This document shows positions 3,742-49,018 of a DNA stretch of 64,000 nucleotides, piece by piece. Source of the stretch: Octopus vulgaris (taxonomy: Eukaryota); contig OX597817.1 in the NCBI GenBank assembly GCA_951406725.2, positions 145,390,001 through 145,454,000 of the forward strand, written 5' to 3'. The stretch's first letter is position 1. Each line of letters starts with the position of its first letter. The translations under genes and the position numbers were made by a program. The notes beneath the pieces were generated by a model, which was given only the letters and a program-made list of their open reading frames with translations, was not told where the DNA came from and searched no databases.

Positions 3742-4960
3742 TTTTTTGTATATATATTTCCCATCTTTATATTGGACATTGTGGAACTGAAAACCTATCA
3801 ATCCATTTCCATGAGAATCAAACATTTTTACAGCATCCAATGAGTTGAATATTTCAGTTTCTTTTATGGTTGAAACCAATTCTTCTGCTGAAAATTCTTC
3901 ACACATTTTTCCACCGCAGTTTTTATTAATCACTTTCTTTAACCCGTTATGCATTGCATAAACTGAATTCATTGTTTGTACGATTCTCTGATTATTTACA
4001 TAAAAATCAATTTCGTCGTCAGAAAAGGTTTTCTTAGTGCATGTAGATGCATTTTTTGGTGAATCACACATATACTGGTTCCAAAAATATTTAAAGTATG
4101 GGTTTTTTAAGTGGTTCAAACTTGCATGTCTCTCTTTTAAATATTTTTTGAAACTTATTCCCTCACGTAAAAGAGCTCGTTTCGAACCATCAACTGTTAT
4201 GATAATAGAGCCAGCAAACACATGGCCATAACTTAAAATCAACTGGTTCTTCCCCCATGCATCACTCCCAATAAAAGTAAAAAAATTATGCATTTTCCTC
4301 TGATTCAAAGATTTAAGAAGATCTACAGTTCGGGAACTGGTGCCAAAGTATATGATAACTTTAATATTCATTATCAATGCCTTGGAAAATACTTCATCAA
4401 ATTCATTATGTTTGGCTTTTGTTTTGCTTGCAGCAATACCTGTAAACGAGAAGATACATATCTGGTTCTCCTTAGCAGCTGAAAGTAAAAGTTTTTTTGC
4501 ATTTAGTCCGTAGTTGTTTGTGGCATAAATTAGCCCAACATACCTCCAATCAAAGAATTTCAAAATTTGAATTATAGCATTTACTTGCTGATTATCACTT
4601 GGGACAGTTCGTAGAAAATATGGATATGAAATCCGATCATCTAGGTCTTCAGAGGAAGCAGCATAGGAAATTACTGGTCTTTTGTATAGCATGAATGTAT
4701 TAGCTATAGCTTTTGTAACAGAGCTTGACAGAGACCCAACAACACCTACAATATTGGATGGAGAAATGACTTGACAAGTACCAATATCCTTGATTTTGGT
4801 CTCACCAGTCAGAATGCTTGTAATATTTGAATATGCACGTAATGGGTTGTAGCAGTCATCCAGCAACAGAGCTCCAAGTTTAACACTATCACTGATAGTT
4901 TTAAACTTGTTCACATAAAACAGGAAAGCTTCTCCGGCAATTGTGTCAATGAAAGGTTTT
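3742..4960 (-). CDS. Coding exon 6 (VFT2, ANF_receptor-type domain); the gene continues beyond the window start
   Basis: Acceptor ttgtttccAG, donor AAA|GTAAGT, phase 2 to 0, 1219 nt open. Motifs LGALLLDDC, VGVVGSLSSSVT, PVISYAASS, YPYFLRTVPSDNQQ, WRYV, NNYG, GSDAW, NPYFKYFW, VYAMHNGL, FDSHGNG. Confidence 0.93.
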
Positions 4961-5847
4961 CTGGAAACAATAAAAAGTAAGAATTTTTTTTAAACAAATT
5001 TTTATAGACAAATTTTTATAGACAGGCGTAGGAGTGGTTGTGTGGTAAGTAGCTTGTTTACCAACCACATGGTTCCAGGTTCAGTCCCACTGCGTTGCAC
5101 CTTGGGCAAGTGTCTTCTACTATAGCCTCTGGCTGACCAAAGCCTTGTGAGTGGATTTGGTAGACGGAAACTGAAAGAAGCCTGTCGTATATATGTGTGT
5201 GTGTGTGTGTGTATGTTTGTGTGTCTGTGTTTGTCTCCCAACATCGCTTGACAACCGATGCTGGTGAGTTTACGTCCCCGTAACTTAGCGGTTCGGCAAA
5301 AGAGACCAATAGAATAAGTACTAGGCTTACAAAGAATAAGTCCTGGGGTCGATTTGCTCAACCAAAGGCGGTGCTCCAGCATGGCCACAGTCACATGACT
5401 GAAACAAATAAAAGAGTAAAAGAGTAAAAAAGATACAATTATTAGTCAAAGCAAAAGGATGGTGCCTTTGATCTATTTAAACCCTTCAAACCAGTGTAGT
5501 TTATGTGGTGGATGGTTAGTCTGAACTTCTGCAGATCTTATGGTTTGGAAAGAAATCATGGGTGAAAAAGGAATTTTAGAAGGGTGTTATTCTGCGAATG
5601 AAGAAAAGATTGAGTTAAATACTTTATAGTGGAATTTATCAGATAAGATACTGACAGTCTGAAGAGAAGTGAGGTTGGTATATTAGGTGGCTCTAAAAAC
5701 TGTGGCAGTGGTGATGTGGGTAGGAGTAGGTTTAGCCCCATATCGACTCTGGTTGGGTATACTTATAACACTGGTCAACAATTTTTGAAAAATTGTGTGC
5801 TTCTTAAATGAGATTAGCTAATTCTTATGTCTTGAATCTAAATATCA

Positions 5848-6810
5848 CCTGTAATGATATGCATAAGATCTGGTCACCAAATCTAAGTAGAGATTTCAAA
5901 CTTAAAATCTTCAAAGCCACAGTCGAACCAATTCTACTATATGGCTCAGAAACCTGGATGTTATCAAAGAAGCTTGAGAGGCGGTTGGATGGAACTTACA
6001 CTTGCCTCCTTATGAGAGCTCAAAATCTCTCGTGGAAGCGTCATCCAACCAAAGTACAAATATATGGGAAACTACCACCTTTATCATCTCTTGATACCAG
6101 AGGGCGACACTCTCCTACCCTGATGTAATCTAGTGGTTAGGGTGTTGTACTCATGGTCAAGAGATCATGGTTTCAATTCCTAGACCAGGTGGTGCATTGT
6201 GTTCTTGAGCAAAACACTTCATCTCATGTTGTGTACTTGTTCAGGCAATGCCAGTTTGACGGATATATATCATCTGAAAAATATTTTCTAACTAGAAAGG
6301 GTATGGCCTGGTCAGCCTGTAATGATAAGCATAAGAGCAGGTCATCAAATCTAAGTAGAGATTTCAAACTTAAAATCTTCAAAGCCACAGTTGAACCAAT
6401 TCTACTATATGGCTCAGAAACCTGGATGTTATCAAAGAAGCTTGAGAGGCGGTTGGATGGAACTTACACTCGCCTCCTTATGAGAGCTCAAAATCTCTCG
6501 TGGAAGCATCATCCAACCAAAGTACAAATATATGGGAAACTACCACCTGTATCATCTCTTGTGAAAGGTAGAAGAGTCCAGTTTGCTGAACATTGTTGTA
6601 GAGCTGAAAACGAGGTAATTTCTACTCTTCTCCTCTGGAAGCCATCTGCTTGTGATACCAGAGGGCGCACACTCTCCTACCCTGATGTAATCTCCAGGGA
6701 TACAGGCATCCAGCAACAGGACCTCCATAATGCTATGATGGACCATGAAGTCAGGCGTAACATAGTAAATTCCATTGTCTCAACCACAATCGAACAATGA
6801 TCAATGATGA
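5848..6810 (+). mobile_element. Two tandem RTE-like LINE 3' fragments separated by a short tRNA-like SINE head
   Basis: KIFKATVEPILLYGSETW is encoded twice (ORFs 5808-6128 and 6153-6800) at near identity. The first copy has an internal deletion. Confidence 0.75.
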
Positions 6811-8229: not shown

Positions 8230-11200
8230 GCAAAAAATTTTCACCGCAAATTTTACCCAAAAATTTTTTCCATAAATTTTTCGAAAATTTCACCCAAAAA
8301 GTTTTCAACAATTTTCACCAAAAATTTTAGCCAAAAATTTTAGCCAAAAATTTTAGCCAAAAATTTTAGCCAAAAATTTTTCGAAAATGTTCACAGAAAA
8401 TTTTTCCCAAAAATATTTCGGAAGTTTTCACTGAAAATTTTCTCCAAAAGTTTTTCGAAAATCTTCACCGGAAATTTTTGCCCTAAAAGTTTTCGTAAAT
8501 TTTCACCGAAAACTTTACCCAAAAATTTACAAAAATTTTAACCAAAAAGTTTTCGAAAATTTTACCCAAAAATATTCCGAAAATTTTAAACAAAAAGTTT
8601 TCGAAAATTTTCACCGAAAATTTTACTCAAATTTTCCGAAAATTTTCACTGAAACTTTTCCCCAAAAAATTTTTCGAAAATTTCATAGAAAAAGTTTTCG
8701 AAAATTTTCACTGAAAATTTTCCCAAAAATTTTCCAAAAATTTTCACCGAAATTTTTAAAAAATTTTTCGAAAGTTTTCACTGAAAATTTTCCCCCAAAA
8801 TTTTTCGAAAATTTTCACTGAAAATTTTCCCCAAAAATTTTTCGAAAATTTTACACAAAAATTTTTAGAGAATTTTCACGGAATATTTTACCCAAAAATT
8901 TTTAGAAAATTTTCACCAAAAACTTTACCCAAAAATTTTCCCCATAAATTTTTCCAAAATTTCACCCAAAAAGTTTTCGAATATTTTCACTGAATATTTT
9001 CCCCAAAAATTTTTCGAAAATGTTCACCGAAAATTTCACGTAAAAAGTTTTCGAAAATTTTCACTGAAAATTTTCAACGAAAATTTTACCCAAAAATTTT
9101 TCCCATAAATTTTTCGAAAATATCACCCAAAAAGTTTTCGAAAATTTTCCACAAAAATTTTCGAAAATTTTAACCGCAAATTTTAGCCAATAATTTTTCG
9201 AAAATGTTCACAGAAAATTTTCCTGAAAAATTTTTTGAAAGTTTTCGCCGAAAATTTTCTCCAAAACCTTTACCCAAAAATTTCCCCCATAAATTTTTCG
9301 AAAATTTCACCCAAAAAGTTTTCGAAAATTTTCACTGAATATTTTCCGCAAAAATTTTTCGAAAATTTTCACCTAAAATTTCAAGTAAAAAGTTTTCGAA
9401 AATTTTCACTGAAAATTTTCACCGAAAATTATACCCAAAAATTTTTCCGATAAATTTTTCGAAAATTTCACCCAAAAAGTTATCGAAAATTTTCACCGAA
9501 AATTTTCCTCATATTTTTTTTTTAAATTTTAACCGCAAATTTTAGCCAATAATATTTCGAAAATGTTCACAGAAAATTTTCCCGAAAAATTTTTCCAAAA
9601 TTTTCACCGAAAAGTTTCCCAAAAATTTTTTGAAAATTTTAACCGCAAATTTTAGCCAATAATTTTTCGAAAATGTTCACAGGAAATTTTTGCCGAAAAA
9701 TTTTTCGAAAATTTTCACCGAAAATTTTCTCCAAAAATTTTTCGAAAATGTTCACCGAAAATTTTTCACAAAAATTTTCGAAAATTTTCACCGAAAATGT
9801 TATCCAAAAATTTTCCGAAAATTTAACCAAAAAGTTTTCAAAAGTTTTCACCAAAAATTTTACCGAAAATTTTCCAAATATTTTCACCGAAAATTTTACC
9901 CAAAAATTTTGCGAAAATTTTCACTGAAAATTTTGTGGAAATTTTCCGAAGATGTTAACCAAAAAGTTTTCGAAGATTTTCACCGAAAACTTTACCCAAA
10001 AATTTACCGAAAAGTTCACCTAAAAATTTTTCGAAAACGTTCCGAAAATTTTCACCGAAAATTTTACCCAAAAAGTTTGCGAAAATTTTCACCGAAAATT
10101 TTACCCAGAAAGTTTCCGAAAATTTAAACCAAAAATGTTTGGAAAATTTTCACCGAAAACTTTACCCAAAAATTTTTCCCATAAATTTTTCGAAAATCTC
10201 ACCCAAAAAGTTTTCGAAAATTTTCACCGAAAATTTTATTCAAAAATTTTCCGAAAATTTTCACTGAAAATTTTCCCAAAAACTTTTCGAAAATTTCACC
10301 TTAAAAGTTTCGAAAATTATCACTGAAAATTTTCCCTAAAAATTTTTCGAAAATTTTACTCAAAACTTTTTAGAAAATTTTCACGGAAAATTTTCACCAA
10401 AAACTTTACCCAAGAATTTTCCCCATAAATTTTTCGAAAATTTCACCCAAAAAGTTTTCGAAAATTTTCACTGAATATTTTCCCCATAAATTTTTCGAAA
10501 ATTTTCACTGAAAATTTACACCGAAAATTTTACCCAAAAATTTTCACCGAAATTTTTCAAAAAGTTTTCGAAAATTTTCACTGGAAATTTTACTCAAAAA
10601 TTTTCCCCAAAAAATTTTTCGAAAATTTCACCTAAAAAGTTTTCGAAAATTTTCACTGAAAATTTTCACCAAAAATTTTTAGAAAATTTTCACGGAAAAT
10701 TTTATCCAAAAATTTTTCGAAAATTTTAACCATAAATTTTTCGAAAATTTTCCCTATAAATTTATCGAAAATTTCACCCAAAAATTTTTCGAAAATTTTC
10801 ACTAAAAATTTTCACCGAAAATTTTGACCAAAAATTTTTCCCATAAATTTTTCGAAAATTTCACCCTAAAAGTTTTCGAAAATTTTCACCGAAAATTTTC
10901 CCCAAAAATTTTTCGAAAATTTTCAGCTAAAATTTTAGCCAAAAATTTTTCGAAAATATTCACAGAAAATTTTCTTCAAAAATTTTTCGAAAATTTTCCC
11001 CAAAAATTTTCTCCAAAAATTTTCCCCCAAAATTTGTAGAAAACTTTCACCGAAAATTTTGTGAAAATTTCCACCGAAAATTTTACCCAAAAATTTTCCG
11101 AAAATTCAACCAAAAAGTTTTCGAAAATTTTCACCGAAAACTTTACCCAAAAACTTACCGAAAATTTCACCTAAGAAGTTTTCGAAAATTTTCACCGAAA

Positions 11201-14200
11201 ATTTTACCCAAAAATTTACCGAAAATTACACCTAAAAAGTTTTCGAAAATTTTCACTGAGTATTTTCCCCAAAAATTTTTCAAAAATTTTCACCGAAAAA
11301 GCAAAAAGTTTTCGAAAATTTTCACTGAAAATTTTCACCGAAAATTTTATTCAAAAATTTTCCGAAAATTTTCACTGAAAATTTTCCCAAAAACTTTTCG
11401 AAAATTTCACCTTAAAAGTTTCGAAAATTATCACTGAAAATTTTCCCTAAAATTTTTCGAAAATTTTACTCAAAACTTTTTAGAAAATTTTCACGGAAAA
11501 TTTTCACCAAAAACTTTACCCAAGAATTTTCCCCATAAATTTTTCGAAAATTTCACCCAAAAAAGTTTTCGAAAATTTTCACTGAATATTTTCCCCATAA
11601 ATTTTTCGAAAATTTTCACTGAAAATTTACACCGAAAATTTTACCCAAAAATTTTCACCGAAATTTTTCAAAAAGTTTTCGAAAATTTTCACTGGAAATT
11701 TTACTCAAAAATTTTCCCCAAAAATTTTTCGAAAATTTCACCTAAAAAGTTTTCGAAAATTTTCACTGAAAATTTTCACCAAAAATTTTTAGAAAATTTT
11801 CACGGAAAATTTTATCCAAAAATTTTTCGAAAATTTTATCCAAAAATTTTTCGAAAATTTTAACCATAAATTTTTCGAAAATTTTCCCTATAAATTTATC
11901 GAAAATTTCACCCAAAAATTTTTCGAAAATTTTCACTAAAAATTTTCACCGAAAATTTTGACCAAAAATTTTTCCCATAAATTTTTCGAAAATTTCACCC
12001 TAAAAGTTTTCGAAAATTTTCACCGAAAATTTTCCCCAAAAATTTTTCGAAAATTTTCAGCTAAAATTTTAGCCAAAAATTTTTCGAAAATATTCACAGA
12101 AAATTTTCTTCAAAAATTTTTCGAAAATTTTCCCCAAAAATTTTCTCCAAAATTTTCCCCCAAAATTTGTAGAAAACTTTCACCGAAAATTTTGTGAAAA
12201 TTTCCACCGAAAATTTTACCCAAAATTTTCCGAAAATTCAACCAAAAAGTTTTCGAAAATTTTCACCGAAAACTTTACCCAAAAACTTACCGAAAATTTC
12301 ACCTAAGAAGTTTTCGAAAATTTTCACCGAAAATTTTACCCAAAAATTTACCGAAAATTACACCTAAAAAGTTTTCGAAAATTTTCACTGAGTATTTTCC
12401 CCAAAAATTTTTCAAAAATTTTCACCGAAAAAGCAAAAGTTTTCGAAAATTTTCACTGAAAATTTTCACCGAAAATTTTATTCAAAAATTTTCCGAAAAT
12501 TTTCACTGAAAATTTTCCCCAAAAACTTTTCGAAAATTTCACCTTAAAAGTTTCGAAAATTATCACTGAAAATTTTCCCAAAAAATTTTTCGAAAATTTT
12601 ACTCAAAACTTTTTAGAAAATTTTCACGGAAAATTTTCACCAAAAACTTTACCCAAGAATTTTCCCCATAAATTTTTCGAAAATTTCACCCAAAAAGTTT
12701 TCGAAAATTTTCACTGAATATTTTCCCCATAAATTTTTCGAAAATTTTCACTGAAAATTTACACCGAAAATTTTACCCAAAAATTTTCACCGAAATTTTT
12801 CAAAAAGTTTTCGAAAATTTTCACTGGAAATTTTACTCAAAAATTTTCCCCAAAAAATTTTTCGAAAATTTCACCTAAAAAGTTTTCGAAAATTTTCACT
12901 GAAAATTTTCACCAAAAATTTTTAGAAAATTTTCACGGAAAATTTTATCCAAAAATTTTTCGAAAATTTTAACCATAAATTTTTCGAAAATTTTCCTATA
13001 AATTTATCGAAAATTTCACCCAAAAATTTTTCGAAAATTTTCACTAAAAATTTTCACCGAAAATTTTGACCAAAAATTTTTCCCATAAATTTTTCGAAAA
13101 TTTCACCCTAAAAGTTTTCGAAAATTTTCACCGAAAATTTTATCAAAAAATTTTTCGAAAATTTTAACCATAAATTTTTCGAAAATTTTCCCTATAAATT
13201 TATCGAAAATTTCACCCAAAATTTTTCGAAAATTTTCACTAAAAATTTTCACCGAAAATTTTGACCAAAAATTTTTCCCATAAATTTTTCGAAAATTTCA
13301 CCCTAAAAGTTTTCGAAAATTTTCACCGAAAATTTTCCCCAAAAATTTTTCGAAAATTTTCAGCTAAAATTTTAGCCAAAAATTTTTCGAAAATATTCAC
13401 AGAAAATTTTCTTCAAAAATTTTTCGAAAATTTTCCCCAAAAAGTTTTCTCCAAAAATTTTCCCCCAAAATTTGTAGAAAACTTTCACCGAAAATTTTGT
13501 GAAAATTTCCACCGAAAATTTTACCCAAAAATTTTCCGAAAATTCAACCAAAAAGTTTTCGAAAATTTTCACCGAAAACTTTACCCAAAAACTTACCGAA
13601 AATTTCACCTAAGAAGTTTTCGAAAATTTTCACCGAAAATTTTACCCAAAAATTTACCGAAAATTACACCTAAAAAGTTTTCGAAAATTTTCACTGAGTA
13701 TTTTCCCCAAAAATTTTTCAAAAATTTTCACCGAAAAAGCAAAAGTTTTCGAAAATTTTCACTGAAGATTTTCACCCAAAATTTTACCCAATAATTTTTC
13801 CCATAAATTTTTCGAAAATTTCACACAAAAAGTTTTCGAAAATTTTCACTGAAAATTTTCACCGAAAATTTTACCCAAAAATTTTTTCCATAAATTTTTC
13901 GAAAATTTCACCCAAAACGTTTTCGACAATTTTCACCGAAAATTTTAGCCAAAAATTTTTCGAAAATGTTCACAGAAAATTTTTCCCAAAAATTTTTCGA
14001 AAATTTTCTCCAAAAATTTTTCTCCAAAAAGTTTTCGAAAATGTTCACCGAAAATTTTTGCACAAAAAGTTTTCGTAAATTTTCACCGAAAACTTTACCC
14101 AAAAATTTACCGAAAATTTTAACCAAAAAGTTTTCGAAAATTTTACCCAATATTCCAAAAATTTTAAACAAAAAGTTTTCGAAAATTTTACTCAAAAATT

Positions 14201-14431
14201 TTCCGAAAATTTTCACTGAAAATTTTCCCCAAAAAATTTTTCGAAAATTTCACAAAAAAAGTTTTCGAAAATTTTCACTGAAAATTTTACCCAAAAATTT
14301 TCCAAAAATTTTCATCGAAATTTTTCACAAGTTTTCACTGAAAATTTTCCCCAAAAATTTTTCGAAAATTTCACAAAAAAAGTTTTCGAAAATTTTCACT
14401 GAAAATTTTCCCCAAAAATTTTTCGAAAATT
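8230..14431. repeat. 6.2-kb satellite of 10-13-bp AAAATTTT-centred units with a ~1.1-kb higher-order repeat
   Basis: Continuous variants of TTTTCGAAAATTTTCACCGAAAATTTTACCCAAAAA. Landmark AAAATTTTATTCAAAA recurs near 10231, 11341 and 12472; CCGAAAAAGCAAAA recurs near 11293, 12425 and 13731. Confidence 0.95.
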
Positions 14432-14710
14432 TGTCTGTCCTTGTTTATCCCCTCTATGTTTAACCCATTGTGGGCAATAAAGAAATAAGAATTTCATACA
14501 AGCATGCTGTTCCTTTGTTTCAGACATCACAAAAGTCTATGAAAAAGGGAGAAGCACGGCACAGCAATGATACACCACATGGCAATACAACTACACAAGA
14601 TGCAAACTGATGCCTGAGAGTCAGATCAAGTATCTTCTTGCAGCAGAAGCCTAAACTATTATGGCTTTATTTACATTTAATGGATATTTGTCCTCATCTT
14701 GTTTGTTGTT

Positions 14711-15792: not shown

Positions 15793-16166
15793 TCACTGCT
15801 AGGAATCGAACTCGGAATCTTGGGGTTAGTAGCCCATGCTCTTAACCACTACACCATATCCTCATCTCTTAAATATAGAACTGTGATAAGAGGCATTCAA
15901 AAACCCCTTCGGCTTTAATCTGGAAACTTAAAGATGAAGGGATCAGTTATGACATCAAATGGAAAATCCTCTTCAGATTCAGACCCCATATTAATGGGTC
16001 TAAAAAATATTCAGTGTGTTCTCTTAAAAACCTTGAGAACCTCTGGCAAATACATATTATGGCTTTGTTCCACAGAGAACGGTTCTGGTTACTTTTGGGT
16101 ACCCTCTCGTATAATGTATGGAAAGTATATATTGTAATTAAATAATCTTAAGTAAAAATGACTAAC

Positions 16167-16393
16167 CTTACATCACCACAACCAAAACCATGACCACTGT
16201 CATGAAGTGAGAAGATGCCTAATATTAAGATGTTTCCTGATACGTACACAAAATTATCATCGTTAAATGATTGACTTTCAGGGCAGGCTTTGGAATATTT
16301 CAAAGTGAGAGTTGAAAATGATGATAGATTATCATTCATCTTTATCGCAGAGGTTTCCAATTGCAAAGTATCATTTGAGAAATATTCACCAAC
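16167..16393 (-). CDS. Coding exon 5 (end of VFT1, linker, start of VFT2)
   Basis: Acceptor atatttcAG, donor AG|GTTAGT, phase 0 to 2. Reads VGEY...GNILILGIFSLH...CGDV(R), the canonical VFT N-terminus (GDxxLGGLFPVH...CG). Confidence 0.88.
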
Positions 16394-18610
16394 CTGAAAT
16401 ATATACAACAAAATTAATGCTAATAACAGTTTCAAGTGATCTTTATAATATATTTGTTTTAGTTGAAAGTTTGTAGCACTGATCGACTTTCATCTCATTT
16501 ATCATCTTATGTATAGACTCAGCTGCAGAAAGATATGGTTTCCACTGTGACTGTAAAAGCAAATCCCATCTAAAAGTTTGGTCATGGAAATGAAAATGAC
16601 CAAAGCAGGACAACGAGGTCTATGCTTTCTTTAGATTTTTGTAGGATGGCAGGCCTTACATATCACTTGGTTTTAAATTGAATATGTGATATTTTGGCAA
16701 AGCTATTTTGGCACAATTTATTTGGCATCACTGATTCAGTGCTGATCTATTCAACATCAGATATTTCAATGCTTTTTCATTCTCTCCCTTTCTGCCCCCC
16801 CCTCTCTCTCTCTCTCTCTCTTCCATCAAATTACATCCTACCATATTAAAAAATGAAAAGGACACATTTGATAAAAATTTGATGAAATAGTCTTCAGAGA
16901 AAAGACAGAATTATCATCACTGGATTGGATACCTTTTATCCATAGAGTCTGCTGGATCAAATGCCCCTCCCCCATCAACTCCTCTTAATGGAGTTGACCT
17001 CAGCACCAGACCACGCAAAGTCTCCAAATTCCATTTCCAAGACCAGCTCAATGCCACACTTCTCCACCAAAGCTCCATTGATCCAAATACCTGGGAGACA
17101 ATCACCAAGGATTTCCCAAAGTGGTGACATGTCATCGTTGAGGGAACAGATCAGATGGGAAATAACAAGCTTTCTGGTACTTGAAACCAGCTAATTGGTT
17201 GGAGCTTTGACAATTCTGTGTTGACCACTCTTGATAGCAAAAGTGCTTAATGTTCAACCCATGTCAACAGGTGACAAATATCATCCACCTATGTACACCC
17301 CCACTACATTCCTCACACAATCAAAGCATTTACCCTCAAAACCCCAAAGATTTACTTGTAGCTATCTAGACACAAAATGCTACTTACAAGAAAAGAAGAG
17401 GTTATACATCATTGCCAAGTAGGAGGCCTTTAACTACCATCACAATGACTCAAGAACAGACAGACACCTTTCTCACTTCTCAAATTGCAGTTGAATTTTT
17501 ACAATTTGTGTGTTCAGTACAAAAATCTTTACTGAAAAATTTCGTTTTTGTCAAGATAGTTCTGAGAGAAATACTCATACTGATAAAGGTATCACATTTA
17601 CCATTTACTTTGCTTCCAACTTCACATCATCAGTAGCAGTATTTTTTACCTGCTTTTTCATGCTGGTATTGGTTGGATGGGGTTTTTTTCCTGAGGCTGA
17701 GTTGCATGGCTGTGTGACTTTCTAACCACTAACTCTTTTTGTTGCCGCATGCAACAGAGACACAGTGTGCCTATCCTAAACCCAGGACACACAAACACAC
17801 AATAATGCTTCTAACTCTACACAGGACACATAAAAAAAAATAGTTCTCTCAGATTCTTCTTCATCATTCCATATGTCTCACTACTTGTTTCAACACCATC
17901 ATCATCATCATCATCATCACCGTTTAACGTCCGCTTTCCATGCTAGCATGGGTTGGACAATTTGACTGAGGGCTGGTGAACCAGATGGCTGCACCAGGCC
18001 TCAATACTTCTTTAATCACCTCAGCCTCAATGTGACTAAATCTCACAAGTTCCTGGCATTATCCTCAAATCTTTTGTTACCTTCAATTGCTCTGTTATCC
18101 TCAAACCTCCCACTACCCTCATTATCTTCAAACTTTCAAATCTTTGCTCATTGGTATATTTTTAGCAAAGTGTACTCTGATCTCTAGTCTTAGGATAACT
18201 TCTTTACAAGTCTCAGAGTTACTGAAAATTATCATGAGCACTGTCATTCTTTAATTAAGTCTGGCCACAATCAAATGACTGGAAAAAAAAAATAAAAGAA
18301 TTATCTAGAAATAGATTTTAGCAGTACCAAAATCTTTGATTCTTCTCACACTACAAGAGAAAACACTCAGCAATGCATTTTATTCCCAAGACCAACAACT
18401 ATATTTAATTTACACACTAACTTTGAGTCAAAGAAGTTTTCTCAGGCTTGCTCCATCTGCTGGAAATTGCAGCCAAATCTTCCCCAAATCATACCCAGCT
18501 ATCTTAAAGAAAAGGACACACTAGGTAATATAGTTTTGAATACCCATAAAGAAGGTATAGGTACAACCTTTGATCAAGGTTAACTTGATGTTAAATAATA
18601 ACATACTAAC

Positions 18611-19336
18611 CTTTTGGAAAATGCTTTGTTTTACTAAATATACATTCAAAGTAGCTGCCACAGAGTTTTCTTTTAAGCCAAGAGCACTTCTAGAAAAACA
18701 ATCTGGAACAATTTGGTCATCAGCAAGAACACTTCTCAGGTTTTGAGGATTCAAGTACGTCGAACATTTCGACATCTTGCATTCCTTTCGTTTAGCAAGG
18801 GCAATGCTATAAACAGACTCCATGATAGCTTTTGTATGAAGTAGCCATTGTCCGTTGTGAGGAATATTTTTTGAATCGACTTTTGTTATATCCAGCATAT
18901 TTCGTATCCATTGATATAACGTATCATTTTGAAATTCAGTTACAGCTTTTATATCCCTCAGATAATCTTTAAATTCCTTGTTGGTAGAGCTCGATGAAGT
19001 TACTACATAGAAACCTTCCATATTAGAATGTTTTGGAAACTCATTTTGTAGTTTCCCAGAAATATCTAAAATTATCCAGGTCATACCTTTGATTTGAAAA
19101 AAGGAATCAATATTTTGTATTTCACCAACATATATCATGCCAGAGGAAAAACTTTCATGAAGAAAAGTTATTTCATCAATTGCATTCTTAGAAAATACTC
19201 TTTTCATTGAAATGCAGATACCATCACTTTTTGCTTTTGCCTCTAATATGTTAGCCATTTCAATTCCATATTCATTATCAGAGTAAATAATTCCAGGGGA
19301 AACCCATTTCAATCTCTTCAAAAGCATTATTGCAGC
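18611..19336 (-). CDS. Coding exon 4 (remainder of VFT1)
   Basis: Acceptor ttttgtttctAG, donor AAG|GTTAGT, 726 nt, phase 0 to 0. Reads AAIMLLKRLKWVSPGIIYSDNEYG...GICI...AIMESVYSIALA...SIFQK. Confidence 0.88.
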
Positions 19337-25586: not shown

Positions 25587-25744
25587 CTTAACTTGAGTTT
25601 CCATGGGTACAGTGAAAGATAAGAAATTCTTATAAGACTGAAATGCTATCTGTTCAATGACAGGGCTAATTACTGGCAATGAAACATATGTGGTTGTTTT
25701 GAGAAGAGATTCAGTCACGGCATAGTCGCCAAGGGAGATAATTG
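25587..25744 (-). CDS. Coding exon 3 (VFT1)
   Basis: Acceptor ttttattcccacAG, donor AAG|GTAATT, phase 1 to 0. Reads (A)IISLGDYAVTESLL...LPVISP...YKNFLSFTVPMETQVK (cf. PQIS...YFxRTVPxDxxQ). Confidence 0.85.
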
Positions 25745-30290: not shown

Positions 30291-30422
30291 CTGTGTATGG
30301 AGTGCCTTTCTTTGTACTTGGTTTAGTACAAAGACCATCTTGAGAATAAGAAGATTTATATATATCATACACATAATTAGCTGCAATCTCTGGTTCTCTA
30401 CAAACATCAAATATTGTGAATT
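30291..30422 (-). CDS. Coding exon 2 (VFT1); the ORF track shows a different frame here
   Basis: Acceptor ttgttttacAG, donor G|GTAAGC, phase 1 to 1. Reads (E)FTIFDVCREPEIAANYVYDIYKSSYSQDGLCTKPSTKKGTPYT, matching the class C GPCR 'IxDTC' motif. Confidence 0.85.
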
Positions 30423-35190: not shown

Positions 35191-35273
35191 TCTTCGCTCT
35201 CTTTTTATTATCATCATCATTATTATTATCATCATCATCATTATTATTATTATTACTATTATTATTACAGTTC

Positions 35274-36410
35274 TACTAATAGTTTCATACGTTGAGAGAA
35301 TTCAAATATATTCTTCAGGCACAAACCACATATCATAACTAACTAAAAAATTGGATAAATCGAAGAAATGTGACTAAACTGAGAAGGCAGCATATAGAAA
35401 GCATAGACAGGAAACAATGGAAAATAAAAAACAGAAAACAAAACTAAAGTGTCAAAAGGTAGGAAGTGCTATCCTCCTTAGGCCTTAAATGATAAAGCTG
35501 CAAAAGATATCAAGTCAGTCAAGAATAGGCAGAATTGTCCAATTCCTCAGAATATATTTATACACATGCATGCAACCACTGAAAATTTCTGACATGGAGT
35601 TCAATAGAGAGTTAGGGATCTTAGATCTGAACAGGATCTGCACTCTTTCAGCCAAACAATGTCTACATTTATTTGATCCATTCACATACGGTATGGATTT
35701 CTCAATTATTATCCATTTAATCACATGCAGTGTTTTATTATCTTTCAAAGTCCATACATATCTAGCCAACTTAGTGGCTTTACTTTTGTCCCTATGTTGG
35801 AAGGAAGCAATGTGATTGACATAGCGATTTTAAATTCTCCTTCACATAATCCAATATAGGTCTTCTTATCAGTTGTATTATTAATTAGGTTTCTGATTAA
35901 ATGGATAATAATTATGAAATCCATACCGTATGTGAATGGATCAAATAAATGTAGACATTGTTTGGCTGAAAGAGTACAAAGATCCTGTTCAGATCTAAGA
36001 TCCCTAACTCTCTATTGAACACCAGGTCAGAAATTTTCAGTGGTTGCATGCATATGTATAAATATATTCTGAGGAATTGGACAATTCTGCCTATTCCTGA
36101 CTGACTTGATATCTTTTGCAGCTTTATCATTTAAGGCCTAAGAGGATAGCACTTTTTACCTTTTGTCACTTTAGTTTCATTTTCCGTAGTTTACTGTCAG
36201 CATTTTCTATATGCAGTCTTCGCAGCTTCATCACATTTCTTCTATTTATCCAATTTTTTAGTTAGTTATGATGTAATTTGTGCCTGAAGAGTATGTTTGA
36301 GTTCTCACAACATATGAAACTATTAGTAGCATTTTAGTACATGTGTTGTGACCTTTAAGTAATAATATTTATCTCTCACCAGATGGAGTACTTATCACAG
36401 TTCAGTACAT
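35274..36410. mobile_element. Penelope-like element remnant with inverted partial duplication (arms 35274-35723 and 35894-36328) and GIY-YIG C-terminus
   Basis: Minus strand KKTYIGLCEGEFK/..NHIASF...LARYVW..K...IKW.II...CRHCLAE...LLN..SE....C.H, with a hammerhead motif at the outer end of each arm. Confidence 0.8.
36281..36328 (+). ncRNA. Minimal type I hammerhead ribozyme, C3-G8 core (inverted copy 35274-35321 -)
   Basis: TGC-CTGAAGA-GTATGTT...AACATAT-GAA-ACTATT-A-GTA. Confidence 0.65.
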
Positions 36411-36420: not shown

Positions 36421-37935
36421 CATCGTCATCATTATCATCATCGTTTAACCGATAAAGCTGCAAAAGATATCAAGTCAGTCAGGAATAGGCAGAATTGTCC
36501 AATTCCTCAGAATATATTTATACACATGCTAGCATGGGTTGGATGGTTCAGCCAGGGTCTGGGAAGCCAGGTGGCTGCATCAGGCTCCAGTCTGATCTGG
36601 CAGTGTTTCTACAGCTGAATGCTCTTTCTAACGTCGACCACTCTGTGAGTGTAGTGGGTGCTTTTCACGTACCACTGGCACAGAGGTCAGAGGAGGCTAG
36701 CAACAGCCACGGTTGGTTGGTGCATGGAAGCCAGTCAAGGTAGCGCTGGCATCAGCCACATTCAGATGGTGCTTTTTACATGCTACCGGCACAGGTATCA
36801 CAACTACAATTTCCATTTGATTTATATTTTGATATTGATGAACTTGACTCAGTAGGTCTCCTCAAGCACAGCAGATTGCCCTATGATCCAAGGTAAGCAC
36901 AGCAGGTCGTCCTATGATCCAAGGTACGTTTGAAGGGGCTGGGGCTAGTTATGCAAAACTGGTCTAGGATACAGCCATGAACTCACTTTATTTGTCAGGT
37001 CTTCACAGTCACAGTATATCTTCAGAGGTCTTGGTTTTTCATCATTGCCTCTGTGAGGCCCCAAAGGTCATGTTTGACCACCTCATCCCATGTCTTCCTG
37101 GGTCTACCTCTACCCTGGACTCCTTGAACTGTTTGGGAGTGGCACTTCTTCATACATCTCTCCTCATCCATCCATAGTACATGACCATACCAGCGCAAAC
37201 GTCTCTCTTGCACGCCACACCCGATGCTTCTTATGTCCAACATTTCTCTCAGGGTGCTTACACTCTGTTGTGTGTGCATACTGACATTACACATCCAGTA
37301 GATCATGCTAGCTTCATTTCTTTCGAGACTATGAATGTCCTCTGCAGTTACACCCCATGTTTCACTTCTGTGAAGCATGGCAGTTCACACACATGTATCT
37401 ACCTTTCACTCTGAGTGAGAGGCCCTTTGTCACCAGCAGGGGTAGAAGCTTTCTAAACTTTGCCCAGGCTATTCTTATTCTAGTGGTAACACTCTCTGAG
37501 CATCCACCCTCACTACTAACTTGGTCACCTAGGTAGCAGAAGCTATCAACTACTTCTAGTTTCTCCCCCTGTGTTGTGATGGAATCTGTTTTCTGAGCAT
37601 CTGTGGTGTTTATTGCCCCAGTGCATCTGCCGCACACGAAAGCTATCTTCTCGGTTAATCTCCCTTTAATGTTGCTGCACCTCTTATGTGTCCATAGCTT
37701 ATACTGGGTACATCTTATGGTGTTTCTACCTACTCCTTTTCTGCTGATCAAGCAGGGCTGCATACCTGAAGGGGTGTGTGATGAGTTCACCTTCCTATTT
37801 ACTAGAAATTTGGTCTTTGCTACATTGACTCTAAGGCCTTTTGATTCTAAACCTTGCTTCCACACGTGGAATTTCTTTTCTAGTTCTAGTAGGGATTCTG
37901 CTATGAGGGCCATGTCATCAGCATAGAGGAGCTCA
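36421..37935 (-). mobile_element. RTE LINE 3' portion (RT C-terminus, Cys-rich insert, 3' UTR); related copies 40260-41030 -, 54755-55940 -, 63135-63937 +
   Basis: ELLYADD, GLRVNVAKTK, VDSFCYLG, RIRIAWAKF, SETW and RRLRWYGHV motifs. Confidence 0.85.
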
Positions 37936-38088
37936 TACATATACACATTTAAAAATAGGATTAGATAAAATCTTAATATGAATTTATCAAGTAGTCAGCA
38001 TGAAAAACCTCATGAGGGAAAAATTTATTATTATTCCTTTTAGATATATTTATTTATATTATAATTCCCTTAATATAAATAAATATAA

Positions 38089-38149
<61 letters not shown>

Positions 38150-38526
38150 TATATATATATGAATATATACATGTATATATAAATTGGACGCTAAACGATG
38201 ATGTATATATAAAACGGACGATAAACGATAATGATGATGATGATAATGATATATTTATATATGTGTGTGTGTGTGTGTATGTGTGCATATATATACGGAT
38301 ATATATATATATATATATATATCCATATATATATGCACACATACACACACACACACACACACATACACACACACATGATGTATATATAAAACGGATGCTA
38401 AACGATGATGATGATGATGATGATGATATATTTATATATGTGTGTGTGTGTGTATGTGTGTGTGTGTGTATGTGTGCATATATATATGGATATATATATA
38501 TATATATATATATCCGTATATATATG

Positions 38527-38558
<32 letters not shown>

Positions 38559-38674
38559 TACACACACATATATAAATATATCATCATCATCATTATCGTT
38601 TAGCGTCCGTTTTATATATACATCATCGTTTAGCGTCCAATTTATATATACATGTATATATTCATATATATATA

Positions 38675-38743
<69 letters not shown>

Positions 38744-39020
38744 TTATTTATATTAAGGGAATTATAATATAAATAAATATATCTAAAAGGAATAATAATA
38801 AATTTTTCCCTTATGAGGTTTTTCATGCTGACTACTTGATAAATTCATATTAAGATTTTATCTAATCCTATTTTTAAATGTGTATATGTATGAGCTCCTC
38901 TATGCTGATGACATGGCCCTCATAGCAGAATCCCTACTAGAACTAGAAAAGAAATTCCACGTGTGGAAACAAGGTTTAGAATCAAAAGGCCTTAGAGTCA
39001 ATGTAGCAAAGACCAAATTT
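37806..39020. repeat. ~1.2-kb near-perfect palindrome
   Basis: 37806-~38375 is the reverse complement of ~38439-39020, covering both the LINE end and non-repeat AT-rich sequence. Confidence 0.9.
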
Positions 39021-39982: not shown

Positions 39983-40017
<35 letters not shown>

Positions 40018-41204: not shown

Positions 41205-41244
<40 letters not shown>

Positions 41245-41730: not shown

Positions 41731-44265
41731 ATTACGGAGATGTACTCGCATAGCAAGTAATTTGATCTGAGATCGTGTGCTGAAACGAAAACAATTGCAG
41801 CGTGGGAGGTGTTTATAAGCCATTTAAGAAACACACAAAAGCCGTTCGATTCACTCCAACATTTAAGTTTAATTTGTCAAAATATTTTTCGTCGCTAAAA
41901 TCCGCGACCTGTTCACTGACAAAGTCCGTGCTGCATCTAAGAAAGTAACAGTTAGTTCGTCATATATATGTATGTACGTATGTATGTGTGTATGTATGCA
42001 TACATGTGTGTATGTATGTACGTATTCATGTCCGCACATACGCCTGTGTATGCATGTATGTATGTATGTATGTATATATGTATGTGTGTGTATAAGCACG
42101 CACATACACTCTATAAAACATAAAGTTATAAACCTGTAGCGATGGATGGATGTAGAGTGACCACTCATCACAACGCTATCAAATTTCAACTCCCTACGGC
42201 CGAGGCTAGAAAGTGAATTTATGACGCTTGCTCACAAGAACTATACCCTAAAATCTATTATCAGATTTTTATCTCTATATCACAGAACTAATGTTTTACT
42301 ATTGTTCGTATGTATGTATGTATGTGCGTATGTATGTATGTATGTATGTATGTATGTATGTATGTATGTATGTATGTATGTATGTATGTATGTATGTATG
42401 TATGTATGTATGTATGTATGTACATACGTACGCATGTGCGTATGTATGTATACGCGCCCGTATGCATGTGCCCATGTATGTGTGTGTGTACATGTACGTG
42501 CGTATGTACGTGTGTATGCCCATACGTAGGTATGTATGTATGTTTGTATTCATGTGCTACGTATGTATGTGAGTGTCTAGGAGAATGGGCAGATGTGTCC
42601 GTGAGAGTGTGTACATGTGTATGTGTATGTGAACGTATGTCCGTGTACTGGCATGTGTCCGTCCAAGTTGTGTACATGACTGTTACTTAGCTGAAGGTTG
42701 TATACATATTTACATATATGTTTGTATAGACGCACACACATATATATATATGTGTGTGGGTGTGTGTTTGTTCCTCTCATCGTCGTCTAACCGTGAATGG
42801 GTACAACGCCTAGGTGCGACTGTTCGTATCAAACAACGTCTGCTCATACCGTTGTATATAACTGCACATACGCATTGCAACCTGTATGTAAGGACTACAG
42901 GTGAAAGGGAGAGAGAGAGAGGGGTGGTTATAGAATAGTCCTTCTGAATGGGATCTGGATGTTATTCCATTCGGACTTTCGGTTGAGAGTAGGTTTGTAT
43001 TCTTGTATACAAACAGCTTCTGTGACCTGTCTCAACATTGCATCGGTGGGATGTGTAGATAGGATGTTCAACTTAAGCTCCCCTAAGGATCCCTTGTGGC
43101 AGTCTACAGCATGTTGGTAGAAGATGGAGTTTGGCTTCCTTTCAATGTAGTTGTCCAGGTGTTCTTTGAACCTATCATTGATGCTTCTAGAGGTCTCACC
43201 TATGTATGTGCAGTTATATACAACGGTATGAGCAGACGTTGTTTGATACGAACAGTCGCACCTAGGCGTTGTACCCATTCACGGTTAGACGACGATGAGA
43301 GGAACAAACACACACCCACACACATATATATATGTGTGTGCGTCTATACAAACATATATGTAAATATGTATACAACCTTCAGCTAAGTAACAGTCATGTA
43401 CACAACTTGGACGGACACATGCCAGTACACGGACATACGTTCACATACACATACACATGTACACACTCTCACGGACACATCTGCCCATTCTCCTAGACAC
43501 TCACATACATACGTAGCACATGAATACAAACATACATACATACCTACGTATGGGCATACACACGTACATACGCACGTACATGTACACACACACATACATG
43601 GGCACATGCATACGGGCGCGTATACATACATACGCACATGCGTACGTATGTACATACATACATACATACATACATACATACATACATACATACATACATA
43701 CATACATACATACATACATACATACATACGCACATACATACATACATACGAACAATAGTAAAACATTAGTTCTGTGATATAGAGATAAAAATCTGATAAT
43801 AGATTTTAGGGTATAGTTCTTGTGAGCAAGCGTCATAAATTCACTTTCTAGCCTCGGCCGTAGGGAGTTGAAATTTGATAGCGTTGTGATGAGTGGTCAC
43901 TCTACATCCATCCATCGCTACAGGTTTATAACTTTATGTTTTATAGAGTGTATGTGCGTGCTTATACACACACATACATATATACATACATACATACATA
44001 CATGCATACACAGGCGTATGTGCGGACATGAATACGTACATACATACACACATGTATGCATACATACACACATACATACGTACATACATATATATGACGA
44101 ACTAACTGTTACTTTCTTAGATGCAGCACGGACTTTGTCAGTGAACAGGTCGCGGATTTTAGCGACGAAAATATTTTGACAAATTAAACTTAAATGTTGG
44201 AGTGAATCGAACGGCTTTTGTGTGTTTCTTAAATGGCTTATAAACACCTCCCACGCTGCAATTGT
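41731..44265. mobile_element. Young Penelope-like remnant: ~1.07-kb near-identical inverted arms (41791-42871 and 43204-44265) around a GIY-YIG C-terminal fragment
   Basis: Minus-strand ORF 42928-43278 reads YIGETSRSINDRFKEH...H...H...RQVTEAVCI...PTLNRKSE. Hammerhead motifs lie near the outer arm ends, and (TA)n flanks the element. Confidence 0.85.
44134..44183 (+). ncRNA. Minimal hammerhead ribozyme variant with G3-C8 core (inverted copy 41873-41923 -, carrying one extra A)
   Basis: TTTGTCA-GTGAACA-G-GTCGC-GGATTTTA-GCGAC-GAA-AATATT-T-TGACAAA: 7-bp stem I, 5-bp stem II and a palindromic stem III. Confidence 0.7.
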
Positions 44266-44467
<202 letters not shown>

Positions 44468-45003: not shown

Positions 45004-45070
<67 letters not shown>

Positions 45071-46600: not shown

Positions 46601-48497
46601 GGTGGAATTCTGCTTTCATCATCATCATCATCATCATCATCATCGTTTAACATCCGTTTTCCATGCTAGCATGGGTTGGACGGTTCAACCGGGGTCTGGG
46701 AAGCCAGGAGGCTGCACCAGGCTCCAATCTGATCTGGCAGTGTTTCTACAGCTGGATGCCCTTCCTAATGCCAACCACTACGTGAGTGTAGTGGGTGCTT
46801 TTTACGTGCTACTGGCATAGGTGCCAGGTGAGGCTGGCTTTAAGCACACAACATATATCTTTATATATATAAAACTGAAAATGTGTGTCTGTCTGTCTGT
46901 GTGTTTCCCTAAAACTTGAGAACTACACAACCAATTTCATTCAAATTTTACACATGCCTTACTTAGGGTCCGGGGAGTGTCATCGGCAAAAAAAATGTTC
47001 AACTTCTTGCCTAGAGCAAGCCCATAGCAATATCATATCTTCTCCACTATTTCAGTATTACGTGTTAAAAGGGAAACAAAAACGTTTCTCTATTTTATGT
47101 CAGATACTTTCACTTTAACAATAAAAATAATAATAACAATTGAATTATATGTAGTAAGTGCGACTATGAAAGGTATCTAATCAGAGGCGGTAAATTTGCC
47201 ACAATAGAAGCAAGGTTCGAGTCAACGGAGCGTGCAAGGGAGTACTCGACTCAAACTTGCAAAGTGGAAATATTTTACTTTTACCTTTATATCTGGGATG
47301 TAGGACGTCCTGGAAAAAAATTTTAAATGCCGCTGCCCCCCCCCCCCCCGAAGTAGAGGTAGGCTGGATTGTAGCCACACTTCTATACAAGAGGGAGGAC
47401 AAGATACAATTGATCGAAATTACAAGAGATGGGCTAACAATTCCAGTCTGTAATATATTTTGAGTATTGTTATCACTAGCGATATCAAGATATAACTTTG
47501 TATTTTGTATTTTATGTGTAGATGTATATATATAGATGTACATGTAATATGTACACATATATATACACATATATACATGCACTAGCACTATGACCCGGCA
47601 ACAACGGGTCTTTAATGCTGGTATATATATATAATAGAAATATGTTACAAAAAGGAAATAGAAACTACATGTGGTAATGTAAGGGGAAAGTAAGAAAAAT
47701 ATTATTTAGCTTGACATGCCTTTTCAGGCACAGCAAACCACCAACAGTCTCAGTCCCCTGTCATCACCTCTGAAAGTCCTAATGTTTGTAGATCTTTTCT
47801 TACCAATTTGTCCTCTCTCCTCTGTATATAGCAAAAATCCAGTCCACACTGTAAAGTGATAGACATTTAGAAGGGCATCTAGCTGTAAAAATCCTTTTCT
47901 ACTGTGTGCATAAAGCAGAATTCCACTAAAGTTTATAAAACATCAATACATCAGATTGACAAATAATACATCAGATTGACAATTTGAGGTGGTCATGAGA
48001 TGTACTAAAAATAATAGCTAAATACCCCTTAAATCACACACAATTTTTTTTTTTGAACGTCTGTGTGTAGAACTCAAATTTACAAACATTTTCTGAAACT
48101 TCTGGAAGATAAAAAAAGTTATTGGGGTCTTTAGATGTTATTTTTAGTACATCACATGACCACCTCAAATTGTCATTGCTTGTTTGTCAATATGATGCAT
48201 TGATGTTTTTCAATATCTGTCTCCCCACAAATACATTAAATGGTCTATTGCTGAGATTTAGGCAAAAAAGAAAATTCAGACTTCCCATATTTTAAACTGT
48301 GACTTTTATTTTTGCAATTTGAAAAATTAGAAACAAAAAAAGTTTTAAAAAATTCGAAAAATTAGAAAATCATTTTTTTTTCTTCATAGTAATATGAATT
48401 CCCATAGAACACAAATTCACAAAAATCTTTTGGAAATTCCAAAAAGAAAAAAAAAGTTGTGAGGAGTTACATTGCATGCTAAAAGCAGAATTCCACC
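46601..48497. mobile_element. Probable MITE with 16-bp TIRs holding a nested RTE tail, a Helitron and an internal ~90-bp inverted repeat (47936-48030 / 48122-48210)
   Basis: GGTGGAATTCTGCTTT ... AAAGCAGAATTCCACC, with flanks TAAACTCT/CAAACTTT. An extra TIR-like copy lies at ~47913. Confidence 0.5.
46858..47621 (+). mobile_element. Non-autonomous Helitron-like element related to 26489-26864
   Basis: A|TC start, shared ATGCACTAGCACTATGACCC, hairpin GACCCG...CGGGTC, and CTGG|T end. Confidence 0.7.
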
Positions 48498-48735
48498 CAA
48501 ACTTTAATGTAAAACAGAAGAAATATCAATAATTTACAAGTAATGCTAATTGCCAATTCCACATGGCTGTTCCATAGGAACCAACATTACTGCCATTTTA
48601 GTTAATTTATCAATAATTTAATCTCAGGAAAAAGCATTTTGAAATTTTCTTTGTGAAATTTATCACAATAATTATAACATTTACATACATTTAAACAGTT
48701 TTAATTATTGAAATATTTTTTTATAAAATACTTAC

Positions 48736-49018
48736 CAATATCGTATTGTGGGATAAGTTTTATGTCTCCACATGGAGCATTAAGTTTGTCAATAATCCAT
48801 TGAATTGCTCCAATGTTTGGAATGGTTGTATTTTGAAACACAGAACACTGATTTGTCGTTAAGTTTTTTGTCATTGCAGACAAAATGACCGCAATTCTTA
48901 GTTCATTAGAAGTGTTTGATACTTCTTTGTCACATCTTAAAACCAAACCTTGACTAAGATATGGTAAAAGAAAACACAGCAAAACAGCTGAAACTATAGT
49001 GTTCCTCATAAGAGCCAT
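48736..49018 (-). CDS. Coding exon 1 of a tandem-Venus-flytrap class C GPCR-like gene (signal peptide plus start of VFT1)
   Basis: ATG at 49018. MALMRNTIVSAVLLCFLLPYLSQG is a hydrophobic signal peptide, followed by LRIAVIL...AIQWIIDKLN...LIPQYDI (resembles the mGluR AMLFAIDEIN...LLPNITLG region). Donor G|GTAAGT at 48735, phase 1. Confidence 0.85.

Follow-up and report, generated by a model that had tools for sequence, protein, structure and literature searches.

The window analysed here, a 64,000-nucleotide stretch of the Octopus vulgaris genome, carries on its minus strand six exons of a gene for a protein with two Venus flytrap (VFT) domains. Exon 1 (48736..49018, aa 1-94) holds the start codon, a likely signal peptide and the start of VFT1 (VFT1 profile E 4.9e-17), and matches the RefSeq Octopus sinensis protein P0030. 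Exons 2 (30291..30422, aa 95-138; VFT1 profile E 2.7e-10) and 3 (25587..25744, aa 139-191) encode lobe 1 of VFT1, the latter with a degenerate pocket (Y146, E169, S181), and exon 4 (18611..19336, aa 192-433; Pfam ANF_receptor E 4e-09) encodes lobe 2 with the conserved C232. The end of VFT1, a linker with the single cysteine C470 and the first strand of VFT2 are found in exon 5 (16167..16393, aa 434-509), and the bulk of VFT2, including S588, S611, Y659, C677, D742 and R834, in exon 6 (3742..4960, aa 509-915; Pfam ANF_receptor E 3.5e-40), which gave a single match in the genome search. As originally predicted, the five introns between these exons are all GT-AG with matching phases (1,1,0,0,2,0), and re-splicing and translation gave the same 915-aa frame without a stop; it differs from P0030 at 5 of 915 positions. 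The hydrophobic stretch at its N-terminus (residues 8-26) fits a signal peptide.

Positions 1..3741 (minus strand) are the in-window part of intron 6, and the gene continues past base 1 (locus L002). Two further exons follow. Exon 7 (G000:C4:145386285-145386033; 253 nt, AG/GT ends, in frame), with 56% identity to the O. bimaculoides protein, encodes the end of VFT2, a stalk with three cysteines and a single transmembrane (TM) helix at about aa 973-995; in the AlphaFold model of P0030 a long helix spans residues 971-1001. The coding part of exon 8 (G000:C4:145380458-145380412), which aligns with the last part of P0030 (E 7e-10), supplies the end of a 19-aa tail and the stop codon, giving a whole protein of 1014 aa. 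A search downstream for a longer tail with cuttlefish-type tails (tblastn; profile, 1167 ORFs) returned nothing significant (best E 0.065), and the short end of the O. bimaculoides model, which differs, was not found downstream of the octopus gene either.

Both domains are VFTs of the class C type. Pfam detects two ANF_receptor stretches in P0001, a RefSeq isoform, and in P0030, and VFT1 and VFT2 align with each other at the profile level over 390 columns (probability 100, E 1.3e-58). The best sequence match in the PDB is mGlu3 (E 1e-43), onto which the model superimposes with Z 41.2 and rmsd 2.6 A over 439 residues at 27% identity (model 479-956 on chain 30-527); these structural matches concern VFT2, and the class of VFT1 rests on its profile alignment to VFT2. 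AlphaFold gives both halves as confident alpha/beta folds joined by a low-confidence linker (pLDDT 85.7, pTM 0.64), so that a fixed VFT1-VFT2 packing is not favoured by the model. The two complete VFTs and the one-cysteine linker of the original prediction were thus recovered. The nine-cysteine domain NCD3G gave no Pfam match after either VFT in P0001, P0030 or the top 20 homologues; one cysteine (C470) follows VFT1, and the three after VFT2 are a remnant.

VFT2 keeps the signature for binding an amino-acid backbone and is a putative amino-acid pocket. The octopus residues are S588, S611, Y659 and D742, and across 30 family members the set reads Ser in 30/30, Ser/Thr in 28/30, Tyr in 30/30 and Asp/Glu in 30/30, although overall identity is 32-43%. 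In mGluRs of classes I-III, Arg78 and Lys409 contact the glutamate side chain (PMC6307864). The mGluR1 Arg78 position of VFT2 is never Arg (0/30; A517 in octopus), and VFT2 is therefore probably not glutamate-selective; the Lys409 position carries a basic residue in 17 of the 30 (R834 in octopus). Octopus VFT1 fails the backbone-binding set (Y146, E169). The lobe-2 cysteine is present in 30/30 VFT2 and 29/30 VFT1 sequences. The dimer helix of class C receptors has two hydrophobic positions, and since VFT2 sequences retain the first in 4/30 cases (the second in 26/30), a dimer of the class C type is doubtful; a VFT2 homodimer prediction (residues 478-958, two copies, alignment not used) scored 0.01 and speaks neither for nor against such a dimer.

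Among the best 150 profile hits, 52 share the layout of signal peptide, two VFTs, one TM helix and tail; those that carry names are molluscs and Lingula. The family spans four mollusc classes and one brachiopod. Among the top 20 homologues, 19 show two ANF_receptor stretches, and Pfam found no kinase, cyclase or NCD3G in any of the 20. A profile search of a large protein set, crowded by other proteins, yielded five hits among 8000 candidates. Most relatives have tails with Tyr and PDZ-type motifs. In 48 tails, counted over related sequences, YxxP occurs 56 times vs 32.8 +/- 5.2 in shuffles; Y[ILVEA]xP occurs 37 times vs 8.2, a motif picked after inspection of the tails and not taken as evidence. 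In the subfamily of the octopus gene 26 of 28 tails end in V/I/L vs 4.3 expected, whereas the second subfamily shows no excess (3/20 vs 2.9). The octopus tail itself has 19 residues with one Tyr and no PDZ-type end, and the argument for signalling through the tail is for this reason not applicable to the octopus gene. It had been supposed that similar architectures may exist in molluscs under automatic names and without functional description. The molluscan homologues found are indeed automatically named, and a search of openly accessible articles, also by gene identifiers, found no description, although a domain table elsewhere may mention them.

With mGluR, CaSR, T1R and V2R the octopus protein shares VFT sequence and fold, the amino-acid-backbone residues of VFT2 and the lobe-2 cysteine, and its cysteine stalk reaches the position of mGlu3 residue 527. 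Unlike them, it has two VFTs per chain, one TM helix, no NCD3G, no 7TM domain and no Arg at the Arg78 position. Venus kinase receptors, as described in PMC3703292, are likewise invertebrate proteins with a class C-like VFT and a single TM helix, and bind L-Arg via a conserved Ser that corresponds to mGluR1 Ser165. They combine one VFT with a tyrosine kinase, whereas the octopus gene encodes a 19-aa tail and no homologue scanned has a kinase. Receptor guanylyl cyclases carry kinase-homology and cyclase domains, neither of which was found in the octopus protein or the homologues scanned. Two tandem VFTs over a membrane anchor also occur in trypanosome receptor adenylate cyclases (PMC6027212) and in the BvgS/EvgS kinases (PMC4352136), but these carry a catalytic output domain that the octopus protein lacks. 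Convergence would be the likelier explanation for this resemblance.

A further 28 of the best 150 profile hits belong to class C GPCRs that carry 2-5 VFTs. The octopus genome itself has two genes, on C25, for 5-VFT class C GPCRs, which bears out the wider idea of the original prediction for genes other than the one in the window. Database proteins from Tubulanus, Sinanodonta and Physella have five VFTs, Saccoglossus four, Branchiostoma two to three and Acanthaster three by Pfam; our literature search found no paper on such receptors. Their repeat unit, like that of the family, is a VFT plus a short three-cysteine linker without NCD3G. They end in 7tm_3, whereas in the octopus family a single TM helix and a disordered tail close the chain. 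In trees built by a rapid LG+G4 search, with long branches and a one-outgroup root, VFT1 of the family groups with VFT1 of the 5-VFT GPCRs (SH-aLRT 91) and VFT2 with their VFT2-5 (SH-aLRT 93), both values being below the starred level. An internal VFT duplication within the family itself was rejected (p-AU 4e-7). From a phylogenetic perspective, it is likely that the family derives from the little-known multi-VFT class C GPCRs; loss of the 7TM domain and exon shuffling onto a TM helix both fit.

Taken at its best, the protein reads as a GPCR-derived, enzyme-less, single-pass putative amino-acid sensor or co-receptor. We give about even chances to the proposal that this 1014-aa two-VFT protein binds an L-amino acid, likely through VFT2, and likely relies on partner proteins, and not on its own G protein, for signalling. 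A ligand would close VFT2, the membrane-proximal flytrap; C677 of lobe 2 may bond with a stalk cysteine (C955/956), as in class C receptors, and closure would then be passed to the TM helix. In most molluscs the disordered tail could recruit phosphotyrosine and PDZ adaptors. With a tail of 19 residues that includes one Tyr, the octopus protein would send its output mostly via a partner subunit. Cephalopod VFT1 may be a spacer or a protein-binding module. The origin of the family would lie before the mollusc/brachiopod split, in a multi-VFT GPCR whose distal part was lost.

In the textbook picture, each chain of a class C receptor carries a single flytrap and a 7TM domain. The octopus family represents a duplicated flytrap module working without the 7TM, and through it class C GPCRs bearing as many as five flytraps come into view in four phyla or more. 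It supplies candidate amino-acid sensors in molluscs and offers a natural experiment in which flytrap closure would be relayed to the membrane via one helix and a minimal cysteine stalk. Surveys starting from a 7TM profile, among them surveys of cephalopod and bivalve GPCRs, are blind to the single-pass family. A bolder reading, which we put forward only tentatively, sees an unrecognised animal receptor class: stacked class C flytraps without a GPCR, wired to phosphotyrosine/PDZ scaffolds or a partner GPCR, and forming a branch of a bilaterian-wide, undescribed superfamily with 2-5 flytraps that reads several amino-acid cues per chain. If true, molluscs including octopus would have an extra taste or nutrient-sensing route beside the known chemoreceptors.

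The protein might instead be a non-signalling accessory, i.e. a ligand sink, an NPR-C-like clearance receptor or a dominant modulator that pairs with and tunes the 5-VFT GPCRs. NPR-C combines a VFT-fold ectodomain with one TM helix and an enzyme-free short tail, and in a comparison of language-model features its clusters come next-nearest (0.94 and 0.93). Still, topology alone is common to the two: NPR-C has just one VFT-fold domain, which is of a peptide-binding kind (Z 26.2 at 10% identity vs 41.2 and 27% for mGlu3), and the octopus protein has two of the mGluR type. The shortness of the octopus tail and the presence in the same genome of two 5-VFT GPCR genes whose VFTs are related speak for an accessory, as does the RefSeq isoform P0001, which through a shifted donor lacks the TM helix. 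The suggestion of a secreted sensor holds for this isoform only and not for the main product with its TM helix. We consider an accessory role somewhat unlikely, as most relatives have long tails with Tyr-x-x-Pro enrichment and, in the subfamily of the octopus gene, hydrophobic C-termini, features that suggest the family actively signals or serves as a scaffold.

A role in adhesion, with the stacked VFTs as a rod for binding a protein in the matrix or on another cell and with a pocket that is a structural relic, appears unlikely. Adhesion molecules typically combine a single-pass build with tails of the Tyr/PDZ kind, and VFT-fold domains of iGluRs and mGluRs do bind trans-synaptic proteins. Moreover, the VFT1 pocket is gone in all four cephalopod sequences, yet VFT1 retains 84% identity between two octopuses. 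VFT2, however, retains its pocket residues in 28-30 of 30 sequences despite their divergence, far better than the VFTs of multi-VFT GPCRs, in the last of which the pocket Ser is kept in 6/13.

That the gene encodes a class C GPCR with two VFTs pairing in one chain and a 7TM domain downstream was a possibility raised by the original prediction, and genuine multi-VFT GPCRs as well as the proximity of VFT2 to mGluRs speak for it. Extension of the locus, where further VFTs and a 7TM domain had been thought possible, gave no additional VFT but one TM helix and a stop, and a neighbouring gene begins 24 kb beyond exon 8. A profile search of the gene's strand across the window and 150 kb downstream found no 7TM exon, whereas the same profile scored control loci on C25 at E 1e-13 to 1e-87; the nearest 7tm_3 match on C4 is ~19.5 Mb away, and Pfam detected 7tm_3 (PF00003) in 0/20 top homologues. 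This reading is largely refuted and very unlikely; the label "class C GPCR-like" remains apt for the ancestry but not for the protein.

The 18 kb length of intron 1, the repeat-rich introns and the public gene model P0031, which is spliced differently, could suggest two adjacent genes or a decaying GPCR pseudogene fused by prediction, but this notion, to which we attach next to no probability, is refuted by the exon 4-5 junction and by family conservation. The joint 18611>16393, originally proposed as a check, is spliced in contigs of X1, X4 and X18 from three studies, i.e. in three of four runs of presumed RNA status, indicating a single gene; X9, with partial coverage of the VFT1 and VFT2 exons, counts as the run without it. 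Contigs of X1 and X4 span exon 4 end to end. The joint 16167>4960 is backed solely by RefSeq models and by the size of run contigs, which appears to agree with exon 6 plus exon 7 plus 291 nt ending in a microsatellite, a fit that would also support exon 8. In relatives, complete ORFs with two VFTs and a TM helix lie on Logan contigs of 4-5.5 kb, and the layout is common to species from chiton through Lingula.

The window corresponds to G000:C4:145390001-145454000. The gene lies on its minus strand, with exons 1-6 within window 3742-49018. As originally predicted, these exons are separated by GT-AG introns, have phases 1,1,0,0,2,0 and yield a stop-free product of 915 aa when spliced, in which Pfam detects two ANF_receptor stretches, i.e. 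two Venus flytrap domains (VFT1 and VFT2), and no NCD3G domain. The spliced product differs from P0030, a RefSeq protein of Octopus sinensis, at 5 of 915 positions, and the O. bimaculoides protein shares 84-88% identity with P0030 per domain. Exons 4 and 6 each gave a single match in genome searches. Contigs from four of 24 listed sequencing runs (X1, X4, X9 and X18) were compared with window 15850-19500. Those of X1, X4 and X18, which belong to three studies, lack a 2217 nt stretch bounded by CT..AC, the proposed junction 18611>16393; those of X9 cover the exons of this region only in part. The designation of the runs as RNA is the tool's guess, but contigs that cover exons alone and jump a canonical intron are the pattern expected of spliced RNA. 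X1 shows three substitutions relative to the window, the same ones that distinguish P0030 from it, which makes it either a close relative or a different allele. The gene is real, spliced and conserved.

The original prediction had regarded the gene as class C GPCR-like, perhaps with more VFTs and a 7TM domain beyond window base 1. Neither was borne out: the 150 kb past base 1 contain no further VFT, and a profile based on ten 7TM domains of multi-VFT GPCRs gave no match on the gene's strand in the window plus these 150 kb. On the opposite strand of the same range this profile gave two weak scores (E 0.03 and 0.09); as a positive control, it recovered loci on contig C25 at E 1e-13 to 1e-87. Exon 7 (G000:C4:145386285-145386033, minus strand) completes VFT2 and adds a stalk, in which C949, C955 and C956 lie, and one hydrophobic helix; exon 8 (minus strand, from C4:145380458) contributes 15 residues before the stop. 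The full product thus comprises 1014 aa with a 19-aa tail and is not a GPCR; this architecture is almost certainly correct. An X1 contig (3404 nt) and one X4 contig each extend 1763 nt downstream of exon 5, a length that matches, and probably represents, exon 6 (1219 nt), exon 7 (253 nt) and 291 nt of exon 8, ending in a microsatellite. The next gene downstream, on the same strand, runs from C4:145356877 downward (L005-L007), starting 24 kb past exon 8, and is presumably NitFhit-like, judging from its motifs. By eye, the RefSeq isoform P0001 apparently uses a donor 4 nt downstream of the exon 6 donor (window 3738-3742), which puts exon 7 out of frame and gives a 928-aa form without transmembrane segment (TM); another public model, P0031, lacks half of VFT2 and has a different last exon.

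The single-pass layout recurs in a family. Exon 6 as a protein query gave 29 matches, and the best 20 include cephalopods, gastropods, bivalves and a chiton. Pfam found two ANF_receptor stretches in 19 of these 20, and 7tm_3, NCD3G, kinase or cyclase domains in none; 18 have one TM past the last VFT, whereas P0001 and P0019 lack a TM. Four homologues are complete ORFs on Logan contigs of 4.2-5.5 kb. In a profile search across 1.84 billion representatives, the best 150 matches, sorted by our own profiles and hydropathy, comprised 52 proteins with two VFTs and one TM, 10 with one VFT and one TM, 28 with 2-5 VFTs and a 7TM, 57 without TM, which are likely fragments or repetitive models, and 3 others. 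Organism names were looked up for 20 of the 150 and obtained for 18; among these, the single-pass matches come from molluscs and, as two paralogues, from Lingula. An ESM Atlas cluster of 105 members (1283 aa, ANF_receptor 100%, 7tm_3 not listed) bears the automatic name mGluR, and its commonest phylum is Mollusca (5 members with phylum). In the FastTree phylogeny the family falls into two subfamilies, each with one Lingula member.

Among the same 18 named matches, 7TM proteins with five VFTs belong to Tubulanus, Sinanodonta and Physella, and the others to Saccoglossus (4 VFTs), Branchiostoma (2-3), Acanthaster and a fish; Pfam on seven non-fish proteins gave two to five ANF domains plus 7tm_3 and no NCD3G. 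The half profiles of VFT1 and VFT2 can be aligned across 390 columns. We computed a FastTree phylogeny of 116 VFTs (from 30 single-pass, 13 multi-VFT and 6 single-VFT proteins) and a quick IQ-TREE phylogeny of 45 VFTs. In both, VFT1 of the family clusters with VFT1 of lophotrochozoan 5-VFT GPCRs, and its VFT2 with the inner and last VFTs of these proteins (supports of 91 and 93, respectively, in the IQ-TREE phylogeny). With groups defined post hoc from trees already seen, AU tests rejected both a clade of GPCR VFTs excluding the family (p 6e-6) and an internal VFT duplication within the family (p 4e-7). On the basis of these groupings and rejections, the tandem array is older than the split between single-pass and 7TM architectures. 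Since multi-VFT 7TM forms also occur in deuterostomes, we infer that the single-pass family lost the 7TM. The fish V2R-like model (P0177, Polymixia lowei) has two VFTs, NCD3G and a 7TM; both its VFTs adjoin the fish class C outgroup sequence in the tree, so the protein reflects either an independent duplication or a fused gene model.

The AlphaFold model of P0030 reached pLDDT 85.7 and pTM 0.64 with 86 sequences (74.4 and 0.52 with 17), with confidence in both VFT halves and low confidence at residues 456-477. Linker and stalk are one three-Cys unit common to the family and the multi-VFT GPCRs, of which the octopus linker keeps a single Cys. Model residues 479-956 align structurally to mGlu3 30-527; as residue 527 is the Cys bonding to lobe 2, disulphides between C677 and a stalk Cys and between C232 and C470 are predicted. 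A class C-type dimer is doubtful, given that no more than 4/30 VFT2 domains have a hydrophobic residue at one of the two interface positions.

In the VFT2 pocket, S588, S611, Y659, D742 and R834 map to mGlu3 S151, T174, Y222, D301 and K389; the respective counts among family members are 30/30, 28/30, 30/30, 30/30 and 17/30. For mGluR1, Ser165 is described in PMC3703292, and Arg78 and Lys409, the contacts of the glutamate side chain, in PMC6307864. None of 30 family members has Arg at the VFT2 Arg78 position. For class IV mGluRs, which lack these side-chain residues, another amino acid is the proposed ligand (PMC6307864), reasoning that extends to VFT2. VFT1 retains the Ser in 20/30 and the Thr/Ser in 23/30 members, and both are lost in all four cephalopod sequences. 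The chances that the receptor senses amino acids through partners seem about even.

Family tails range from 13 to 750 aa (median about 200; 54 proteins). In 48 tails, leaving out two octopus and four near-duplicate proteins, YxxP is enriched (56 versus 32.8 expected; maximum 50 in 500 shuffles) and Yxx[VIL] is not (65 versus 55). With subfamilies assigned by tree where included and otherwise by score rank, a C-terminal V/I/L occurs in 26/28 tails of the octopus gene's subfamily and 3/20 of the other. The octopus tail holds a single Tyr and lacks a V/I/L end.

The gene would work like other VFT receptors, yet it has none of the output domains by which class C GPCRs, VKRs or receptor cyclases are defined. 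Trypanosome cyclases (PMC6027212) and BvgS also place tandem VFTs over one TM, but theirs come with catalytic domains. Metazoan layouts as described in PMC12716839 have one ANF domain, and the accessible portions of PMC3703292, PMC12716839, PMC6307864, PMC2246102, PMC6027212, PMC6408891 and PMC11682238 contain no mention of tandem-VFT animal receptors. As anticipated, only automatic names exist ('uncharacterized' or mislabelled 'mGluR' models), and gene and family are apparently without published description in the main texts of the literature searched.

Elsewhere in the genome, contig C25 carries two neighbouring 5-VFT + 7TM genes (3680k-3657k and 3634k-3601k, L019-L027), colinear with a bivalve 5-VFT GPCR in tblastn order. 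A literature search for 5-VFT class C GPCRs found no paper, and the pair is probably about as interesting as the single-pass gene itself. A third class C gene (C25 3568k-3560k) has at least one VFT. At G000:C3:103448297-103455968 (L029, L030), two divergent VFT-like ORFs and a linker match precede a 7tm_3 exon, a candidate multi-VFT GPCR. ANF_receptor matches also fall in a cluster of eight long open frames, of 1014-1759 aa, at G000:C12:28.44-28.61 Mb, and in one at C18:66.72 Mb. The one examined (L031:1485-6530) is a 1682-aa receptor guanylyl cyclase that combines a VFT with EGF-like, kinase-like and cyclase domains; its single frame suggests a retro-derived expansion.

Intron 5 harbours a 6.2 kb AT-rich tandem array (window 8234-14432; period about 12-13, higher-order units, strong strand skew). 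A 1.08 kb inverted repeat (98% identical, window 41791-44265) flanks an ORF (window 42934-43278) with a GIY-YIG match weaker than the cut-off (E 0.002); we take the element to be Penelope-like. Window 35273-36329 holds an inverted pair, and window 37806-39020 a 1.2 kb palindrome. Broken transposase pieces at window 59349-60309 are presumably mariner-like; the one piece scanned with Pfam gave no match. A LINE reverse-transcriptase remnant occupies window 1-1300 and extends past the window start.
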